From: Escherichia coli | GTDB taxonomy: Bacteria > Pseudomonadota > Gammaproteobacteria > Enterobacterales > Enterobacteriaceae | Length of the DNA: 64,000 nt | Reading direction: 5' to 3' (one strand) | NCBI RefSeq assembly: GCF_003334385.1 | Contig: NZ_QOWN01000018.1 | Shown: piece by piece, positions 11,704 to 49,072 of the stretch | Layout of the letters: each line of letters starts with the position of its first letter | Numbering within the stretch: position 1 is the first letter of the stretch | Position numbers and translations under genes: made by a program | The notes under the pieces: model-generated | Database searches by the model: none | The model's input: the letters and a program-made list of their open reading frames with translations, nothing else | Told to the model about the DNA's origin: nothing

Positions 11704-13326
<1,623 letters not shown>

Positions 13327-13334
13327 CAATGCAT

Positions 13335-13357
13335 TCCGGCCTGCAGTGCAGGCCGGA
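13335..13357. terminator. Hairpin between convergent murJ and flgN
   Basis: TCCGGCCTGCA / TGCAGGCCGGA inverted repeat; no strong T-tract. Confidence 0.4.
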
Positions 13358-13365
13358 GATAATCT

Positions 13366-13782
13366 TCAGATCGAAATCTTTTTACCGCCGCGATGGGTTG
13401 TTGAGGTCTGACCGTTCGCCCCATATAGCGTCGGTTCCTGATGCGGTTTCAACATTTCCAGCGCCTGTTGATTGCGCTCAATCTGTCCTTCCAGTAACCA
13501 GCCGTTATGTTGATTCATTTGGCGTAGTTGCTGCGTTTTCACAGTAATTTCCTGCCAGCGTTGACTAATATCAACGCTATTTGCTGTATTGGGTTCTTTC
13601 CTGCGTAACTGTTCGAGGTAATCCAGCGTCGCCAGCAGTGAGCTTTTTTGTTCTGTAATCCATTGCAACTGGCTGCCGTTGATCTGCCCCATAGAGAGAT
13701 GTTGCTGCTCTTGATCCATTACCGTTTTGAGATCGTTAAGCACAGCGGACATCTGGTCGAGGATCTCTGCAAGACGTGTCAT
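13366..13782 (-). CDS. flgN: Flagellar export chaperone for FlgK/FlgL
   Basis: ORF track 138 aa. Confidence 0.9.
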   Translation of the reverse strand: MTRLAEILDQMSAVLNDLKTVMDQEQQHLSMGQINGSQLQWITEQKSSLLATLDYLEQLRRKEPNTANSVDISQRWQEITVKTQQLRQMNQHNGWLLEGQIERNQQALEMLKPHQEPTLYGANGQTSTTHRGGKKISI

Positions 13783-13786
13783 ACGA

Positions 13787-14080
13787 TCAGTTACTCTGCA
13801 AGTCTTGCTGCGCTTCGTTGATCAGCGCATCGGCAATTTTGCCGGTGTCCATTTTTAGTTCACCGTTACGAATCGCCAGTTTTAACGCTTCGACACGTTC
13901 AAGATTGATATCACTGCTGCCGGGTTGCATCAGTTTTGCTTGCGCGTCGCTTAACGTCACACTGGTGCTGGTGGAGGCGGTTGTTTTTGCCGCCCGGCTG
14001 TTCGTTACCGGCGCGTCAGTGGTTTCGCGCGGTTGAACGGTGCTTACAGGCTTCAGAGGCGAAGTGCGATCAATACTCAT
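13787..14080 (-). CDS. flgM: Anti-sigma-28 factor
   Basis: ORF track 97 aa. Confidence 0.9.
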
Positions 14081-14123
14081 GGTTTATTCCTCATTGAGGG
14101 CGCTTTTATCATGTGTTGCTTAT

Positions 14124-14150
14124 TTATCGGCAAGGGACGGGTAATCTTTA
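14124..14150 (-). promoter_or_regulatory. Sigma-28 (FliA) class 3 promoter for flgMN
   Basis: Minus strand reads TAAAGATT-N11-GCCGATAA, close to consensus TAAAGTTT-N11-GCCGATAA; in the 75-bp gap between the flgA stop and the flgM start. Confidence 0.8.
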
Positions 14151-14155
14151 ACAGC

Positions 14156-14815
14156 TTACAGGTTTATAAGAATATTCCCATCTGCATCAACAACGCCGCT
14201 GACTACCTGTCCCGATACCATGCGCACCCGCGCATTCTGTGCGACGGCTGCATTGTTCAGCGCCTGACCTTCTGCGTTGGCGCTAAACCCATCACCGCTG
14301 GCGATCACATTGACGCGTTGTCCCGCTTTTACCCGCCATGCCTGGCGAAACTGGGTTAACTGGATAGGTTGATCGGGTGATAGATCGCGCAGGCTAATGG
14401 CATCAACAAGTTGATTGATATCCAGCACCGTACGCGGTGGCAGGGTATCCAGCCGTCCGCGTTTCAGTTTGACATTGCCAGCTTCCAGCTTTCCTCCCCG
14501 CGCAATGGGCATCGCGGCAACCACATAATTTCCTGTGGCCTGTACATTAACCTGTAAATATCGTTTGTCGTTACCGCAGCGTGCCAACACATTCACATTG
14601 CCCCACAGGCGGGAATTATTGCTCATCGAAAGCAATGGCTGCTCGCATGGCGGTAGTAGATTGGGCGCTGTACGAATAGAAACACGAACCTCATCACTTA
14701 CCCCCGCGAGTTGGGCGCTAAAAAAGTTGTGCAATTGCGATGTGAGATTGCTCGCCGTACTTAACGGACTGAACAGTATCGCGATGATCGCCACGCTACG
14801 TTTTATTATCAGCAT
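14156..14815 (-). CDS. flgA: Flagellar P-ring assembly chaperone
   Basis: ORF track 219 aa with signal peptide. Confidence 0.9.
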   Translation of the reverse strand: MLIIKRSVAIIAILFSPLSTASNLTSQLHNFFSAQLAGVSDEVRVSIRTAPNLLPPCEQPLLSMSNNSRLWGNVNVLARCGNDKRYLQVNVQATGNYVVAAMPIARGGKLEAGNVKLKRGRLDTLPPRTVLDINQLVDAISLRDLSPDQPIQLTQFRQAWRVKAGQRVNVIASGDGFSANAEGQALNNAAVAQNARVRMVSGQVVSGVVDADGNILINL

Positions 14816-14969
14816 TTTCGCCCCCAGCCATTTCTACAACGTGAATTGTACCTGTCCGCAATGACCATCAACGGCATAAATAGCGACCCATTTTGCGTTT
14901 ATTCCGCCGATAACGCGCGCGTAAAGGCATTTAAGCTGATGGCAGAATTTTGATACCTGCGGAGGAGAT
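14816..14969. promoter_or_regulatory. Divergent flgA / flgB class 2 promoter region with candidate FlhD4C2 box elements
   Basis: 154-bp divergent intergenic region; AAATAGCG (14878-14885) and GATAACG (14909-14915) resemble FlhDC box half-sites as recalled. Confidence 0.5.
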
Positions 14970-15386
14970 ATGCTCGATAAGCTCGACGCCGCCTTACGTT
15001 TTCAACAAGAGGCGCTCAATCTGCGCGCCCAGCGTCAGGAAGTGCTGGCAGCAAACATCGCCAATGCCGATACCCCTGGTTATCAGGCGCGCGATATCGA
15101 TTTTGCCAGTGAACTTAAAAAAGTCATGCAACGTGGACGGGATGCAACCAGTGTGGTTGCACTGACGATGACCTCAACGCAACACATTCCGGCGCAGGCG
15201 CTGACGCCTCCTACCGCAGAACTGCAATACCGTATTCCGGACCAGCCTTCGCTTGACGGTAATACCGTCGATATGGATCGCGAACGCACCCAGTTTGCCG
15301 ATAACAGCCTGCAATACCAGATGAGCCTTAGCGCGTTGAGCGGGCAAATCAAAGGCATGATGAACGTTTTACAGAGCGGAAATTAA
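14970..15386 (+). CDS. flgB: Flagellar basal-body rod protein FlgB
   Basis: ORF track 138 aa. Confidence 0.95.
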
Positions 15387-15389
15387 CGG

Positions 15390-15794
15390 ATGGCACTGCT
15401 GAATATTTTTGATATCGCCGGGTCGGCGTTAACTGCCCAGTCCCAGCGCCTGAACGTGGCGGCCAGTAATCTGGCGAATGCTGATAGCGTGACCGGTCCC
15501 GATGGACAGCCATATCGGGCAAAACAGGTGGTATTCCAGGTTAACGCTGCACCAGGTGCTGCGACAGGCGGCGTAAAGGTTGCCGATGTTATAGAAAGTC
15601 AGGCCCCGGACAAACTGGTTTATGAACCGGGTAATCCGCTGGCAGATGCAAAGGGCTACGTAAAAATGCCGAACGTTGATGTTGTCGGAGAGATGGTTAA
15701 CACCATGTCGGCGTCACGCAGCTATCAGGCCAATGTTGAAGTGCTCAACACGGTGAAAAGCATGATGCTGAAAACCCTTACGCTCGGTCAATAA
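15390..15794 (+). CDS. flgC: Flagellar basal-body rod protein FlgC
   Basis: ORF track 134 aa. Confidence 0.95.
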
Positions 15795-15805
15795 AGGAGA
15801 AAGCT

Positions 15806-16501
15806 ATGTCCATTGCGGTAACCACCACCGATCCGACAAATACCGGCGTCAGTACCACCAGCAGTAGTTCGCTCACGGGCAGCAACGCCGCAGATTTACA
15901 AAGCAGTTTTCTGACTTTGCTGGTGGCGCAGCTGAAAAACCAGGACCCGACCAATCCAATGGAAAACAACGAGCTGACGTCGCAATTGGCACAAATCAGC
16001 ACGGTCAGCGGGATTGAAAAACTCAATACCACGCTCGGATCTATTTCCGGACAGATTGATAACAGCCAGTCGTTACAGGCCAGTAACCTGATCGGTCACG
16101 GCGTGATGATCCCCGGCACCACTGTTCTTGCGGGAACCGGCAGTGAAGAAGGGGCTGTGACCACGACCACGCCGTTTGGTGTTGAGCTGCAACAGGCGGC
16201 AGACAAAGTTACGGCCACCATCACCGATAAAAATGGCGCGGTTGTGCGCACCATTGATATTGGTGAACTGACCGCCGGAGTTCACAGTTTCACCTGGGAC
16301 GGTACGTTGACTGATGGCAGCACTGCGCCGAACGGTTCTTACAATGTAGCGATTAGCGCCAGTAACGGTGGTACACAACTGGTTGCCCAGCCGCTGCAGT
16401 TTGCTCTGGTGCAGGGTGTGATCCGCGGCAACAGCGGTAATACGCTGGATCTCGGCACTTACGGCACCACCACCCTCGACGAAGTACGGCAGATAATTTA
16501 A
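15806..16501 (+). CDS. flgD: Flagellar hook capping/assembly protein FlgD
   Basis: ORF track 231 aa. Confidence 0.95.
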   Translation: MSIAVTTTDPTNTGVSTTSSSSLTGSNAADLQSSFLTLLVAQLKNQDPTNPMENNELTSQLAQISTVSGIEKLNTTLGSISGQIDNSQSLQASNLIGHGVMIPGTTVLAGTGSEEGAVTTTTPFGVELQQAADKVTATITDKNGAVVRTIDIGELTAGVHSFTWDGTLTDGSTAPNGSYNVAISASNGGTQLVAQPLQFALVQGVIRGNSGNTLDLGTYGTTTLDEVRQII

Positions 16502-16525
16502 GCCTTCACATTTCAGGAGTCAGTC

Positions 16526-17734
16526 ATGGCCTTTTCTCAAGCGGTTAGCGGATTAAACGCTGCCGCCACCAACCTCGATGTTATTGGCAACAATATCGCC
16601 AACTCCGCCACCTACGGCTTTAAATCAGGCACGGCCTCTTTTGCCGATATGTTTGCCGGTTCGAAAGTGGGACTGGGGGTAAAAGTTGCCGGTATCACTC
16701 AGGACTTTACCGATGGCACGACCACCAACACCGGGCGAGGTCTGGACGTTGCTATCAGCCAGAACGGTTTTTTCCGTCTGGTAGACAGCAACGGTTCGGT
16801 GTTCTACAGCCGTAACGGACAATTTAAGCTGGATGAAAACCGTAACCTGGTGAATATGCAAGGTTTACAGCTGACGGGTTACCCGGCAACCGGTACGCCG
16901 CCGACTATTCAGCAAGGGGCGAATCCGACCAATATTTCGATCCCGAATACCCTGATGGCAGCGAAAACTACCACCACGGCATCGATGCAGATCAACCTGA
17001 ATTCCAGTGATCCGCTTCCTACTGTTACGCCATTCAGCGCCAGCAATGCGGATAGCTATAACAAAAAAGGTTCGGTGACTGTTTTCGACAGTCAGGGTAA
17101 TGCTCATGACATGAGCGTCTACTTTGTGAAGACCGGGGATAATAACTGGCAGGTCTACACCCAGGATAGCAGTGATCCAAACAGCATTGCGAAGACAGCG
17201 ACAACACTGGAATTTAATGCTAATGGCACATTAGTGGATGGTGCGATGGCGAATAATATCGCAACCGGCGCAATTAACGGTGCAGAACCCGCCACGTTTA
17301 GTCTGAGCTTCCTCAACTCCATGCAGCAAAATACCGGCGCTAACAATATTGTGGCAACCACCCAGAACGGCTACAAACCGGGCGATCTGGTGAGTTATCA
17401 AATCAATGATGACGGTACGGTTGTCGGCAACTATTCCAACGAACAAACCCAACTGCTGGGGCAGATTGTACTGGCGAACTTTGCCAACAACGAAGGTCTG
17501 GCATCCGAAGGCGACAACGTCTGGTCTGCGACGCAATCTTCTGGCGTGGCGCTGTTGGGGACAGCCGGGACGGGAAACTTTGGCACCCTGACCAACGGTG
17601 CGCTGGAAGCGTCCAACGTCGATCTCAGTAAAGAACTGGTCAATATGATCGTTGCCCAGCGTAACTATCAGTCTAACGCCCAGACCATCAAAACCCAGGA
17701 CCAGATCCTCAACACGCTGGTTAACTTACGCTAA
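16526..17734 (+). CDS. flgE: Flagellar hook protein FlgE
   Basis: ORF track 402 aa. Confidence 0.95.
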   Translation: MAFSQAVSGLNAAATNLDVIGNNIANSATYGFKSGTASFADMFAGSKVGLGVKVAGITQDFTDGTTTNTGRGLDVAISQNGFFRLVDSNGSVFYSRNGQFKLDENRNLVNMQGLQLTGYPATGTPPTIQQGANPTNISIPNTLMAAKTTTTASMQINLNSSDPLPTVTPFSASNADSYNKKGSVTVFDSQGNAHDMSVYFVKTGDNNWQVYTQDSSDPNSIAKTATTLEFNANGTLVDGAMANNIATGAINGAEPATFSLSFLNSMQQNTGANNIVATTQNGYKPGDLVSYQINDDGTVVGNYSNEQTQLLGQIVLANFANNEGLASEGDNVWSATQSSGVALLGTAGTGNFGTLTNGALEASNVDLSKELVNMIVAQRNYQSNAQTIKTQDQILNTLVNLR

Positions 17735-17753
17735 TCGCTGACGGGATAGCTCA

Positions 17754-18509
17754 ATGGATCACGCAATTTATACCGCGATGGGAGCAGCCAGCCAGACACT
17801 GAATCAACAGGCGGTAACCGCCAGTAATCTGGCCAATGCCTCAACGCCCGGTTTTCGCGCGCAGTTGAATGCTTTACGCGCGGTGCCAGTGGAAGGGCTT
17901 TCTCTGCCCACGCGCACGTTGGTCACGGCGTCAACGCCGGGCGCAGATATGACGCCCGGCAAAATGGATTACACCTCGCGCCCGCTGGACGTCGCGTTGC
18001 AGCAGGATGGCTGGCTGGCCGTGCAGACCGCTGACGGCAGCGAAGGGTATACGCGTAATGGCAGCATTCAGGTTGATCCCACCGGGCAACTGACAATTCA
18101 GGGGCATCCGGTGATAGGCGAGGCTGGGCCAATTGCTGTGCCGGAAGGGGCGGAAATCACTATTGCTGCCGATGGCACAATCTCGGCGCTCAATCCGGGC
18201 GATCCGGCAAATACGGTTGCGCCAGTAGGGCGTCTTAAACTGGTGAAAGCCACGGGCAGCGAAGTGCAGCGCGGTGACGACGGCATTTTTCGTTTAAGCG
18301 CAGAAACCCAGGCCACGCGTGGGCCGGTACTGCAGGCAGATCCAACCTTGCGTGTGATGTCGGGGGTTCTGGAAGGCAGTAACGTCAATGCCGTTGCGGC
18401 AATGAGCGACATGATTGCCAGCGCGCGGCGTTTTGAAATGCAGATGAAGGTGATCAGCAGCGTCGATGATAACGCAGGCCGTGCCAACCAACTGCTGTCG
18501 ATGAGTTAA
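17754..18509 (+). CDS. flgF: Flagellar proximal rod protein FlgF
   Basis: ORF track 251 aa. Confidence 0.95.
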   Translation: MDHAIYTAMGAASQTLNQQAVTASNLANASTPGFRAQLNALRAVPVEGLSLPTRTLVTASTPGADMTPGKMDYTSRPLDVALQQDGWLAVQTADGSEGYTRNGSIQVDPTGQLTIQGHPVIGEAGPIAVPEGAEITIAADGTISALNPGDPANTVAPVGRLKLVKATGSEVQRGDDGIFRLSAETQATRGPVLQADPTLRVMSGVLEGSNVNAVAAMSDMIASARRFEMQMKVISSVDDNAGRANQLLSMS

Positions 18510-18601
18510 TTGAAAGGATACATGACAAGTATAAGTTGCCCGATGCGCAAGTTTATCGGGTCTATGGGGGCAATCGCAATTTATCGATTTTGCGAGCACT
18601 T

Positions 18602-18635
<34 letters not shown>

Positions 18636-18662
18636 AAGAAGACATATGCACTTTGTCACTAA

Positions 18663-19463
<801 letters not shown>

Positions 19464-19515
19464 GGCTTAACCGGTGGCAGGTTCACCGGTTTACTGATTT
19501 TTGAAGATGATAGCC

Positions 19516-20214
19516 ATGCAAAAAAACGCTGCGCATACTTATGCCATTTCCAGCTTGTTGGTGCTTTCACTAACCGGCTGCGCCTGGATACCCTCCACGC
19601 CGCTGGTGCAGGGGGCGACCAGTGCACAACCGGTTCCCGGTCCGACGCCCGTCGCCAACGGTTCTATTTTCCAGTCTGCTCAGCCGATTAACTATGGCTA
19701 TCAACCGCTGTTTGAAGATCGTCGACCACGCAATATTGGCGATACGCTGACCATCGTGTTGCAGGAGAACGTCAGCGCCAGCAAAAGCTCCTCTGCGAAT
19801 GCCAGCCGTGACGGTAAAACTAATTTTGGCTTTGATACTGTGCCGCGCTATTTGCAGGGGCTGTTTGGTAACGCTCGTGCCGATGTCGAAGCCTCCGGTG
19901 GTAACACGTTCAACGGAAAGGGCGGGGCCAATGCCAGCAATACCTTTAGCGGCACGTTGACGGTGACGGTTGACCAGGTACTGGTCAACGGCAACCTGCA
20001 TGTGGTGGGTGAAAAACAGATTGCCATTAATCAGGGTACCGAATTTATTCGCTTCTCTGGCGTGGTTAATCCACGCACTATCAGCGGCAGCAATACCGTA
20101 CCGTCTACTCAGGTGGCGGATGCGCGCATTGAATACGTAGGCAATGGCTACATTAACGAAGCGCAAAATATGGGCTGGTTGCAGCGTTTCTTCCTTAACC
20201 TGTCGCCAATGTAA
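19516..20214 (+). CDS. flgH: Flagellar L-ring lipoprotein FlgH
   Basis: ORF track 19501..20214; start placed at ATG 19516 ([22 protein letters not shown] lipobox), 232 aa. Confidence 0.9.
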
Positions 20215-20225
20215 GTGAGGCTGTG

Positions 20226-21323
20226 GTGATTAAATTTCTCTCTGCATTAATTCTTCTACTGGTCACGACGGCGGCTCAGGCTGAGCGTATTCGCGATCTC
20301 ACCAGTGTTCAGGGGGTAAGGCAAAACTCACTGATTGGCTATGGTCTGGTGGTGGGGCTGGATGGCACCGGTGACCAGACAACCCAGACGCCGTTTACCA
20401 CACAAACGCTTAATAACATGCTCTCACAGCTGGGAATTACCGTTCCGACGGGCACCAATATGCAGCTAAAAAACGTCGCTGCGGTAATGGTGACAGCGTC
20501 ACTTCCTCCGTTTGGACGTCAGGGGCAAACCATCGATGTGGTGGTTTCTTCCATGGGAAATGCCAAAAGCTTGCGTGGAGGTACGTTGTTGATGACACCG
20601 CTTAAGGGCGTTGACAGTCAGGTGTATGCGCTGGCGCAGGGCAATATTCTGGTTGGCGGCGCAGGAGCCTCCGCTGGCGGTAGCAGTGTTCAGGTTAACC
20701 AACTGAACGGTGGACGGATCACCAATGGTGCGGTTATTGAACGTGAATTGCCCAGCCAGTTTGGCGTCGGGAATACCCTTAATTTGCAACTTAACGACGA
20801 AGATTTCAGCATGGCGCAGCAAATCGCTGACACCATCAACCGCGTGCGTGGATATGGCAGCGCCACCGCGTTAGATGCGCGGACTATTCAGGTGCGCGTA
20901 CCGAGTGGCAACAGTTCCCAGGTCCGCTTCCTTGCCGATATTCAGAATATGCAGGTTAATGTCACCCCGCAGGACGCTAAAGTAGTGATTAACTCGCGCA
21001 CCGGTTCGGTGGTGATGAATCGCGAAGTGACCCTCGACAGCTGCGCGGTAGCGCAGGGGAATCTCTCAGTAACAGTTAATCGTCAGGCCAATGTCAGCCA
21101 GCCAGATACACCGTTTGGTGGTGGACAGACTGTGGTTACTCCACAAACGCAGATCGATTTACGCCAGAGCGGCGGTTCGCTGCAAAGCGTACGTTCCAGC
21201 GCCAGCCTCAATAACGTGGTGCGCGCGCTCAATGCGCTGGGCGCTACGCCGATGGATCTGATGTCCATACTGCAATCAATGCAAAGTGCGGGATGTCTGC
21301 GGGCAAAACTGGAAATCATCTGA
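20226..21323 (+). CDS. flgI: Flagellar P-ring protein FlgI
   Basis: ORF track 20223..21323; start placed at second GTG 20226 ([19 protein letters not shown] signal), 365 aa. Confidence 0.9.
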
Positions 21324-22264
21324 TGATCAGCGACAGCAAACTACTGGCAAGTGCGGCCTGGGATGCGCAATCACTCAACGAACTAAAGGCGAAAGCGGGC
21401 GAAGATCCGGCGGCAAATATCCGTCCGGTGGCCCGTCAGGTGGAAGGGATGTTCGTGCAGATGATGTTGAAAAGCATGCGCGACGCTTTACCAAAAGATG
21501 GCCTGTTCAGCAGCGAGCACACTCGCCTGTATACCAGTATGTATGACCAGCAGATTGCCCAACAGATGACGGCGGGCAAAGGTCTGGGGCTTGCAGAGAT
21601 GATGGTTAAACAGATGACGCCAGAACAACCATTGCCAGAGGAGTCCACGCCAGCAGCACCGATGAAATTCCCGCTCGAAACTGTGGTGCGTTATCAAAAT
21701 CAGGCGCTTTCGCAGCTGGTGCAAAAGGCCGTGCCACGTAACTACGATGATTCGCTGCCGGGTGACAGTAAAGAATTCCTCGCGCAACTCTCGCTGCCCG
21801 CCCAACTGGCAAGCCAGCAAAGCGGTGTGCCACATCATTTGATCCTCGCTCAGGCGGCACTGGAATCTGGTTGGGGGCAACGGCAAATCCGCCGCGAAAA
21901 CGGCGAGCCGAGCTATAACCTGTTTGGTGTCAAAGCCTCTGGCAACTGGAAAGGGCCAGTTACTGAAATCACCACGACTGAATATGAAAACGGCGAAGCG
22001 AAGAAAGTAAAAGCGAAGTTTCGCGTCTACAGCTCGTATCTGGAAGCCTTGTCGGATTACGTTGGGCTGTTAACGCGTAACCCGCGCTACGCCGCCGTGA
22101 CGACCGCCGCGAGTGCGGAACAGGGGGCGCAGGCCCTACAGGACGCGGGCTATGCCACCGATCCTCACTATGCCCGCAAACTCACCAACATGATTCAGCA
22201 GATGAAATCGATAAGCGACAAGGTGAGCAAAACCTACAGTATGAACATTGATAATCTGTTCTGA
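21323..22264 (+). CDS. flgJ: Flagellar rod-assembly protein / peptidoglycan hydrolase FlgJ
   Basis: ORF track 21293..22264; start placed at ATG 21323 ([16 protein letters not shown]...), 313 aa; ATG overlaps the flgI TGA by 1 nt. Confidence 0.9.
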   Translation: MISDSKLLASAAWDAQSLNELKAKAGEDPAANIRPVARQVEGMFVQMMLKSMRDALPKDGLFSSEHTRLYTSMYDQQIAQQMTAGKGLGLAEMMVKQMTPEQPLPEESTPAAPMKFPLETVVRYQNQALSQLVQKAVPRNYDDSLPGDSKEFLAQLSLPAQLASQQSGVPHHLILAQAALESGWGQRQIRRENGEPSYNLFGVKASGNWKGPVTEITTTEYENGEAKKVKAKFRVYSSYLEALSDYVGLLTRNPRYAAVTTAASAEQGAQALQDAGYATDPHYARKLTNMIQQMKSISDKVSKTYSMNIDNLF

Positions 22265-22269
22265 ATAAC

Positions 22270-22296
22270 TCAAGTCCGGCGGGTCGCTGCCGATAA
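22270..22296 (+). promoter_or_regulatory. Sigma-28 (FliA) class 3 promoter for flgKL
   Basis: TCAAGTCC-N11-GCCGATAA; perfect -10 element, 5 of 8 matches in the -35; 34 bp upstream of the flgK ATG. Confidence 0.7.
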
Positions 22297-22329
22297 TACT
22301 CTGTAATTGAAGGCTTATAAGGAACCTCC

Positions 22330-23973
22330 ATGTCCAGCTTGATTAATAACGCCATGAGCGGACTGAACGCGGCCCAGGCGGCGTTAAATACGGCAAGTAA
22401 TAATATCTCCAGCTATAACGTTGCCGGATATACCCGCCAAACCACTATTATGGCGCAGGCCAATAGCACGTTGGGCGCTGGCGGCTGGGTTGGCAATGGT
22501 GTCTACGTTTCTGGTGTGCAGCGTGAGTATGATGCGTTTATTACCAACCAGTTACGTGCGGCGCAGACGCAAAGTAGCGGTCTGACTGCCCGCTATGAGC
22601 AGATGTCGAAAATCGACAATATGCTCTCCACCAGTACCTCTTCGCTGGCAACACAGATGCAGGATTTCTTCACCAGCCTGCAAACGCTGGTGAGTAACGC
22701 GGAAGACCCGGCAGCGCGCCAGGCGCTGATTGGGAAATCAGAAGGATTGGTGAATCAGTTTAAAACCACCGATCAATATCTGCGCGACCAGGACAAACAG
22801 GTCAATATCGCGATAGGTGCCAGCGTTGATCAGATCAACAACTACGCTAAACAAATTGCCAGCCTGAACGATCAAATCTCGCGCCTGACAGGCGTGGGGG
22901 CAGGGGCGTCACCTAACAATCTGCTGGATCAACGCGATCAACTGGTGAGCGAATTAAACCAGATTGTTGGTGTAGAAGTCAGCGTTCAGGATGGCGGCAC
23001 TTATAACATCACGATGGCCAATGGTTACTCACTGGTTCAGGGAAGTACGGCGCGGCAACTGGCGGCAGTTCCTTCCAGCGCTGACCCTTCTCGTACGACT
23101 GTCGCTTATGTTGATGGGACGGCAGGCAATATTGAGATCCCGGAGAAATTACTGAATACCGGGTCGCTGGGCGGCATTCTGACATTCCGTTCTCAGGATC
23201 TGGACCAGACGCGTAATACGCTTGGACAACTGGCGCTGGCATTTGCCGAGGCTTTCAACACCCAACACAAAGCCGGATTTGATGCTAACGGCGATGCCGG
23301 TGAAGATTTCTTTGCTATCGGTAAGCCCGCGGTTCTGCAAAACACGAAAAACAAAGGTGACGTTGCGATCGGTGCCACGGTAACTGATGCCTCCGCGGTA
23401 CTGGCGACAGATTACAAAATCTCGTTCGATAATAATCAGTGGCAGGTCACCCGCCTTGCCAGCAATACCACTTTTACGGTGACGCCGGATGCCAACGGTA
23501 AAGTGGCATTTGATGGTCTGGAGTTGACGTTTACAGGAACGCCTGCCGTTAACGACAGCTTCACGCTGAAACCAGTAAGTGACGCCATCGTCAACATGGA
23601 TGTATTAATCACCGACGAAGCGAAAATAGCGATGGCGAGCGAAGAAGATGCGGGTGATAGCGATAACCGCAACGGTCAGGCCCTGCTGGATCTGCAAAGC
23701 AACAGTAAAACGGTGGGCGGTGCGAAATCCTTTAACGACGCTTATGCCTCGTTAGTGAGTGATATCGGTAATAAAACCGCGACGTTGAAAACCAGTAGCG
23801 CCACGCAAGGTAATGTGGTGACGCAGCTTTCCAATCAGCAGCAGTCGATTTCCGGTGTCAATCTCGATGAGGAGTACGGAAATCTGCAACGTTTTCAGCA
23901 GTATTACCTGGCGAATGCGCAGGTTCTGCAGACGGCAAACGCGATTTTTGATGCGCTGATTAACATTCGCTAA
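22330..23973 (+). CDS. flgK: Flagellar hook-filament junction protein 1 (HAP1)
   Basis: ORF track 547 aa. Confidence 0.95.
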   Translation: MSSLINNAMSGLNAAQAALNTASNNISSYNVAGYTRQTTIMAQANSTLGAGGWVGNGVYVSGVQREYDAFITNQLRAAQTQSSGLTARYEQMSKIDNMLSTSTSSLATQMQDFFTSLQTLVSNAEDPAARQALIGKSEGLVNQFKTTDQYLRDQDKQVNIAIGASVDQINNYAKQIASLNDQISRLTGVGAGASPNNLLDQRDQLVSELNQIVGVEVSVQDGGTYNITMANGYSLVQGSTARQLAAVPSSADPSRTTVAYVDGTAGNIEIPEKLLNTGSLGGILTFRSQDLDQTRNTLGQLALAFAEAFNTQHKAGFDANGDAGEDFFAIGKPAVLQNTKNKGDVAIGATVTDASAVLATDYKISFDNNQWQVTRLASNTTFTVTPDANGKVAFDGLELTFTGTPAVNDSFTLKPVSDAIVNMDVLITDEAKIAMASEEDAGDSDNRNGQALLDLQSNSKTVGGAKSFNDAYASLVSDIGNKTATLKTSSATQGNVVTQLSNQQQSISGVNLDEEYGNLQRFQQYYLANAQVLQTANAIFDALINIR

Positions 23974-23984
23974 GGGGAGATAAG

Positions 23985-37251: not shown

Positions 37252-38061
37252 ATGTTCTTAATTAACGGTCATAAGCAGGAATCGCTGGCAGTAAGCGATC
37301 GGGCAACGCAGTTTGGTGATGGTTGTTTTACCACCGCCAGAGTTATCGACGGTAAAGTCAGTTTGTTATCGGCGCATATCCAGCGACTACAGGATGCTTG
37401 TCAGCGGTTGATGATTTCCTGTGACTTCTGGCCTCAGCTTGAACAAGAGATGAAAACGCTGGCAGCAGAACAGCAAAATGGTGTGCTGAAAGTCGTGATC
37501 AGTCGCGGTAGTGGCGGGCGAGGGTACAGCACATTGAACAGCGGACCGGCAACGCGGATTCTCTCCGTTACGGCTTATCCTGCACATTACGACCGTTTGC
37601 GTAACGAGGGGATTACGTTGGCGCTAAGCCCGGTGCGGCTGGGGCGCAATCCTCATCTTGCAGGTATTAAACATCTCAATCGTCTTGAGCAAGTATTGAT
37701 TCGCTCTCATCTTGAGCAGACAAACGCTGATGAGGCGCTGGTCCTTGACAGCGAAGGGTGGGTTACGGAATGCTGTGCGGCTAATTTGTTCTGGCGGAAG
37801 GGCAACGTAGTTTATACGCCGCGACTGGATCAGGCAGGTGTTAACGGCATTATGCGACAATTCTGTATCCGTTTGCTGGCACAATCCTCTTATCAGCTTG
37901 TCGAAGTGCAAGCCTCTCTGGAAGAGTCGTTGCAGGCAGATGAGATGGTTATTTGTAATGCGTTAATGCCAGTGATGCCCGTATGTGCCTGTGGCGATGT
38001 CTCCTTTTCGTCAGCAACGTTATATGAATATTTAGCCCCACTTTGTGAGCGCCCGAATTAG
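37252..38061 (+). CDS. pabC: Aminodeoxychorismate lyase
   Basis: ORF track 269 aa. Confidence 0.95.

Positions 38062-47231: not shown

Positions 47232-49072
<1,841 letters not shown>

Follow-up and report, generated by a model that had tools for sequence, protein, structure and literature searches.

A FliA-dependent class 3 promoter, flgKp, in the flgJ-flgK gap of Escherichia coli overlaps the class 2 flgB operon

The window analysed here, a stretch of 64 kb taken as a whole, comes from the E. coli K-12 chromosome and contains flagellar genes and rne. In the RefSeq annotation, the minus-strand genes flgN, flgM and flgA come first, then flgBCDEFGHIJ, flgK and flgL in plus orientation, and finally rne, which is again on the minus strand (Table 1). 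A gap of 65 nt separates flgJ, whose stop codon ends at 22264, from flgK, and the surrounding positions 22152-22452 are identical to MG1655 NC_000913.3. For strain ER1709, RefSeq lists flgG as a frameshifted pseudogene; the flgG ORF of the window (18681-19463) is intact and encodes 260 aa. The flgF-flgG spacer (18510-18680) is unusually long (171 nt) and carries a REP-like palindrome, GCCGGATAAGGCGTTTACGCCGCATCCGGC. A weak sigma-28 holoenzyme SELEX peak (6.7-fold) has been reported for this spacer (Shimada 2017, PMC5493296), in which we found no plus-strand FliA-like motif, just a poor match on the minus strand. At the other end of the cluster, directly after the rne stop codon, positions 25091-25114 form a palindromic hairpin on both strands (AAGCCCTGG...CCAGGGCTT) with a T-run on the minus strand, which is probably the rne terminator between the convergent genes flgL and rne.

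Table 1. Features at and around the flgJ-flgK gap (window coordinates).
Feature	Position	Strand	Basis or remark
flgMN class 3 promoter, TAAAGATT-N11-GCCGATAA	14123-14150	-	best FliA matrix match, 25.0 bits
flgJ, last gene of the class 2 flgBCDEFGHIJ operon	21323..22264	+	RefSeq annotation of identical K-12 record; ORF list
-35 octamer of flgKp, TCAAGTCC	22270..22277	+	sequence; part of published FliA motif
flgKp spacer, GGCGGGTCGCT, 11 nt	22278..22288	+	fixed length, free sequence
-10 octamer of flgKp, GCCGATAA	22289..22296	+	sequence
Transcription start site (TSS) of flgKp	22304 (+/-1 nt)	+	dRNA-seq entry FWD_(II)-1137576, U00096.2
5' leader of the class 3 transcript, 26 nt	22304..22329	+	sequence
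Shine-Dalgarno AAGGAA of flgK, in the class 3 leader	22319-22324	+	sequence
flgK (hook-filament junction protein 1, HAP1)	22330..23973	+	ORF list, RefSeq annotation
flgL (hook-filament junction protein, HAP3)	23985..24938	+	ORF list, RefSeq annotation
Intrinsic terminator closing flgKL	24980-25015	+	terminator scan; 12-bp stem (24980-25008) + T7
RNase E 5' UTR autoregulatory element	28344-28680	-	Rfam RF00040, 260 bits, full model

The gap displays the architecture of a sigma-28 promoter, two octamers 11 nt apart. The -10 octamer agrees with the sigma-28 consensus GCCGATAA at all eight positions; the -35 octamer agrees with TAAAGTTT at five of eight, a weak match. The A of the flgK start codon lies 34 nt past the final base of the -10 octamer. 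The initial annotation of this DNA, made from the letters alone, had described a perfect -10, a partial -35, an 11-nt spacer and a distance of 34 nt to the ATG, all of which are exactly as it stated. Consensus match and conservation together suggest that TCAAGTCC and GCCGATAA, at this spacing, are the recognition elements. The element at 22270-22296 is almost certainly flgKp, which drives late (class 3) flagellar transcription in E. coli K-12. The literature already covers this promoter, the dependence on FliA and the control of flgKL by overlapping class 2 and class 3 units.

How far does the sequence itself carry this assignment? The textbook consensus TAAAGTTT-N11-GCCGATAA, scanned with up to 3 mismatches, yields 3 matches in 64 kb against 0.54 expected, a number reached by 3 of 100 shuffles. 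We also used a weight matrix built from 48 FliA ChIP-seq motifs (Fitzgerald et al. 2014), from which flgK, flgM and two flagged false positives were excluded. The initial annotation had proposed a FliA motif scan as a check, and with this leave-out matrix flgKp (18.7 bits) indeed takes second place among about 128,000 positions, outscored only by the flgM promoter. Under a first-order Markov null, 0.02 sites per 64 kb are expected to reach the flgKp score, and at least one did so in 4 of 200 simulations. A matrix of 23 sites, drawn from strong peaks only, puts flgKp at just rank 5, with a null expectation of 0.155.

Three further sequences come near the flgK score, at 16-18.5 bits: 47979-48006 (+), 37840-37867 (-) and, within flgD, 16204-16231 (+). 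None of them has a FliA ChIP-seq peak in Fitzgerald 2014, which reports only 1129384 (flgM) and 1137565 (flgK) in the genome interval of the window (PMC4183435). The matrix score by itself hence does not predict FliA occupancy. The presence of unbound sequences of similar score also speaks for a rival account, in which the flgK motif arose by chance and read-through from the class 2 promoter of flgB is the only source of flgKL transcripts. From sequence alone the case for flgKp is suggestive rather than decisive; the question is settled by position, conservation and published binding data.

The -10 octamer is itself overrepresented. We counted 10 copies of GCCGATAA in the window, compared to 2.09 expected, and 0 of 100 shuffles reach that count. 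A credible -35 box accompanies only the flgM and flgK copies. The other eight are without a -35 box and mostly intragenic; the excess might stem from codon or dipeptide usage or from weak FliA sites inside genes.

To assess conservation, we took 80 further Enterobacteriaceae species and selected their flgK loci solely by similarity of the FlgK protein (71-96% identity), a choice that is therefore unbiased as to the promoter. All 80 loci carry TCAAGTNN-N11-(G/T/A)(C/T)CGATA(A/C) upstream of flgK, and TCAAGT is present in 80 of 80. In each of the 73 distinct 60-mers, the distance between the start of the -35 box and CGATA is exactly 21 nt, and the CCGATA of the -10 octamer is invariant across these sequences. 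Mean information per column amounts to 1.82 bits in the -10 box and 1.71 bits in the -35 box, where anchoring on CAAGT makes five alignment columns invariant by construction; it falls to 0.43 bits in the spacer, with 0.58-0.79 bits in the flanking columns. Invariant TCAAGT and CCGATAA blocks also appear when eight genera are aligned with MAFFT without anchoring. The evidence for conservation consists of the presence of the anchor in every locus, the fixed offset of the -10 box and the agreement of the unanchored alignment. Thus the element sits upstream of the late genes flgK and flgL and is retained at the orthologous position in 80 species, and its cross-species footprint illustrates what promoter constraint looks like: two invariant boxes, a fixed spacing of 11 nt and a free spacer. 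Such a pattern argues against a chance match.

Within E. coli, the 1-kb stretch 21800-22800 finds a match in all 5,426 complete genomes, at 100% in K-12-type strains. In 4,932 of 5,425 genomes the identity of the 65-nt gap reaches 99% or more, and in the most divergent copy examined all four changes in the gap fall outside both boxes. Matches to flgJ-flgK on records labelled as plasmids account for 5 of 5,427 in this genome collection. In Enterobacter, Kosakonia, Leclercia, Lelliottia and their relatives, the flgK leader exceeds that of Escherichia, Citrobacter and Salmonella by about 9 nt; the longer leader holds a conserved CAGGACTCGTGTCTGAA-like segment, located between about 45 and 10 nt ahead of flgK.

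Is there a transcription start at the expected place? The dRNA-seq entry listed in Table 1 is a primary 5' end enriched by TAP treatment (Romero et al. 2014, PMC4681348). It was converted to window coordinates with an offset of 1115272 from U00096.2, obtained from three anchors: the two motif centres of Fitzgerald (+/-0.5 nt each), the RegulonDB-confirmed rne P1 TSS 1143952, and the annotation of NC_000913.3. The second anchor makes use of the rne 5' UTR element, since the first position of RF00040 (rne5), at window position 28680, coincides with the published P1 start and served as calibration. Purine enrichment at 30 published TSSs, also tried for the offset, gave no clear peak. The mapped start lies 8 nt after the -10 octamer, in keeping with an expected distance of about 6-8 nt and with the distances found for flgM (6-8 nt; its dRNA-seq start converts to window 14116-14118) and aer (6 nt), and it leaves a leader of 26 nt. 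The initial annotation had predicted a FliA-dependent start near 22303, within one nucleotide of the mapped position. At +1 the mapped start has a T, an unusual base there; G22303 or A22305 is possible, given the +/-1 nt uncertainty of the conversion. No start close to this position is listed in the accessible portions of the Cappable-seq and Kim et al. 2012 supplementary TSS tables. In the dRNA-seq data set 1137576 is assigned to Class II, defined by TAP enrichment with no step in coverage, which its authors expect where a promoter nests downstream of a stronger one (PMC4681348).

Published data place FliA directly on this element. The 28-mer TCAAGTCCGGCGGGTCGCTGCCGATAAT (22270-22297) is the FliA ChIP-seq motif given for flgKL in Table 2 of Fitzgerald et al. 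2014 (PMC4183435); the corresponding peak has a fold-above-threshold (FAT) score of 47 and its centre, 1137565, converts to window position 22293, on the -10 box. In genomic SELEX, the flgJ>flgK spacer is picked out by purified RpoF holoenzyme on its own, with a 27.2-fold peak that is the second-highest described (Shimada et al. 2017, PMC5493296), and in-vitro transcription of flgK by RpoF holoenzyme is cited in the same paper. For Hollands et al. 2010, flgKL belongs to a set of eight well-characterised sigma-28 promoter regions, and they observed no clear binding of CRP to a flgKL fragment (PMC2859248). The ROSE in-vitro transcription paper is without sigma-28 data, and in a Salmonella FliA preprint flgK appears only in a strain genotype.

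The expression data show a partial dependence of flgK on fliA. In microarrays, fliA deletion lowers flgK 5.5-fold and flgL 4.9-fold, and 5 min after induction of FliA the two genes are up 2.2-fold and 1.8-fold, respectively (Zhao et al. 2007, PMC1935009). Overexpression of fliA in an flhD deletion brings flgK back to wild-type levels or above (PMC4183435). By RNA-seq, flgK drops from 318 to 138 (about 2.3-fold) upon fliA deletion, a change not flagged as significant, and the authors conclude that the FlhDC-dependent route gave most of the flgK transcript under their conditions (PMC4183435). Exclusive read-through could draw on this non-significant effect, which comes from one RNA-seq data set, as well as on the RT-PCR product that spans flgJ-flgK and on the terminator-free gap described below. 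It is opposed by the ChIP-seq peak centred on the -10 box, by binding of the sigma-28 holoenzyme to the spacer in vitro, by restoration of flgK expression by FliA without FlhDC and by the primary 5' end at about 22304, 8 nt downstream of the -10 octamer. The initial annotation had itself named flgKL transcripts arising only by read-through, with no start site here, as the outcome to look for against its reading. We consider that account so improbable that it can be practically set aside. ChIP-seq, SELEX, the primary 5' end and the fliA expression data agree instead with the annotated reading, a sigma-28 promoter that gives class 3 transcription of flgKL.

Does this promoter make flgKL a unit of its own, separate from the flgB operon? 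The initial annotation had taken the promoter to indicate as much, and flgKL does possess its own promoter and TSS and is classically listed among six class 3 operons (PMC4183435). These points would also favour a class 3 operon that is wholly independent of, and insulated from, the flgB operon. A terminator scan of the 65-nt gap (22264-22330), however, found no terminator-like hairpin and hence nothing that would insulate flgJ from the flgK promoter; a sigma-70-like promoter was not found in the gap either. RT-PCR yields a product across flgJ-flgK in motile MG1655, but not in an flhD deletion (Fitzgerald 2014, PMC4183435). The Class II assignment of the TSS, with no step increase in coverage, and the large persistence of flgK mRNA in the fliA deletion point the same way, and an insulated operon is highly improbable. 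Our correction to that reading is that flgKL is dual-regulated, being both the tail of the class 2 flgB transcript and a class 3 unit of its own, the two overlapping. Since there is no terminator in the gap, flgKp adds an FlhDC-independent, FliA-gated supply of FlgK and FlgL, the hook-filament junction proteins, on top of read-through.

Read-through may not be purely a class 2 event. A secondary promoter upstream of flgB, flgBP2, is sigma-28-dependent and activated by MarA (NAR 2026, PMC12781870), so that read-through into flgKL can itself be sigma-28 driven. A perfect GCCGATAA is found at 14906-14913 (+), 57 nt upstream of the flgB ATG (14970). It has CCCATTTT and no TAAAGTTT-like -35 box, and it probably belongs to flgBP2.

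The other end of the unit is marked by an intrinsic terminator that begins 42 nt past the flgL stop codon. FlgO, an Hfq-bound, sigma-28-dependent sRNA of about 75 nt, is processed from the flgL 3' UTR (Melamed et al. 2023, PMC10578931). It probably occupies about 24940-25015, coordinates that we infer, with its 3' end formed by this terminator. The class 3 transcript would then consist of the 26-nt leader, flgK and flgL, would end within 24980-25015, and its 3' UTR would give rise to FlgO.

Could the conserved blocks be kept for a function in RNA rather than in DNA, as a processing site in the read-through transcript or as a structure affecting flgK translation? The -35 box offers one argument in favour. 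Its position 2 is a C in all 73 distinct Enterobacteriaceae sequences (TCAAGT, compared to TAAAGT in the consensus), and the base preceding the box with this C is a C in 95% of them, features that promoter optimisation alone does not predict. Yet the blocks fit the sigma-28 consensus both in sequence and in their exact spacing of 11 nt, and direct binding of sigma-28 is documented. Folding compared with shuffled sequences gave z = -0.06 for the leader and z = +0.11 for the read-through junction, values on which a transcript-specific leader structure was dropped and which give no sign of RNA control peculiar to either transcript. An Rfam scan of 13000-29500 returned only the rne 5' UTR element, and no family for the flgJ-flgK gap or FlgO. 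A function at the RNA level is accordingly very unlikely as the reason for conservation of the blocks, and we retain the promoter reading.

The tightly held, sub-optimal C at -35 position 2 is the sole mildly unexplained detail of flgKp. Together with the preceding C, it could reflect selection beyond plain sigma-28 recognition, a proposition that we consider unlikely and offer tentatively. Three forms are conceivable. An attenuated -35 box might cause flgKp to fire only at high levels of free FliA; the box might overlap a site for another factor; or the conserved bases might act as a signal in the read-through RNA. If any of these were true, flgKp would be a tuned, not a generic, class 3 promoter.

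How might flgKp work in the assembly of the flagellum? In the standard model of flagellar regulation, the anti-sigma factor FlgM keeps FliA inactive as long as the hook-basal body is unfinished, and FliA is freed only when FlgM is exported through the completed structure. In this model flgKp therefore fires late. Published data show that RNA polymerase carrying FliA (sigma-28) occupies flgKp and that transcription starts at about 22304. In this manner flgKp supplies FlgK and FlgL, the first proteins needed past hook completion, without requiring FlhDC. Judging from Salmonella, the supply probably serves swarming and the regrowth of filaments; the experiments that showed a part in swarming and in filament repair were done in Salmonella rather than E. 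coli (Wozniak, Chevance & Hughes 2010, as cited in PMC4183435). Our analysis confirms that a genuine sigma-28 promoter can be recognised from raw sequence, and has little significance beyond this.

Comparison with known systems sets flgKp in context. Like flgKp, flgBP2 is sigma-28-dependent and part of the same gene cluster. It opens poorly alone, needs MarA bound between its -35 and -10 elements and is repressed by FlhD4C2 (PMC12781870); for flgKp no dependence of this kind is reported. The flgMN promoter is another parallel within the window: it too depends on sigma-28, is nested in a class 2 unit (flgAMN) and combines a GCCGATAA -10 octamer with an 11-nt spacer, and its ChIP FAT score is 48 (PMC4183435). 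The two differ in the -35 box, where TAAAGATT of flgMN is nearer to the consensus (7/8) than that of flgKp (5/8), with matrix scores of 25.0 and 18.7 bits. In Salmonella enterica, the class 3 promoter of flgK (Kutsukake & Ide 1995; Wozniak 2010, both as cited in PMC4183435) takes the same position after flgJ and shares the overlapping class 2 and class 3 architecture, whereas its spacer and leader sequences differ from those of E. coli; in S. enterica subsp. arizonae the arrangement reads TCAAGTCC-N11-GCCGATAA, with 33 nt to the ATG. The flgKp of E. coli K-12 (Fitzgerald et al. 2014; Shimada et al. 2017) is the same element as the one described here, identical in sequence and in position.
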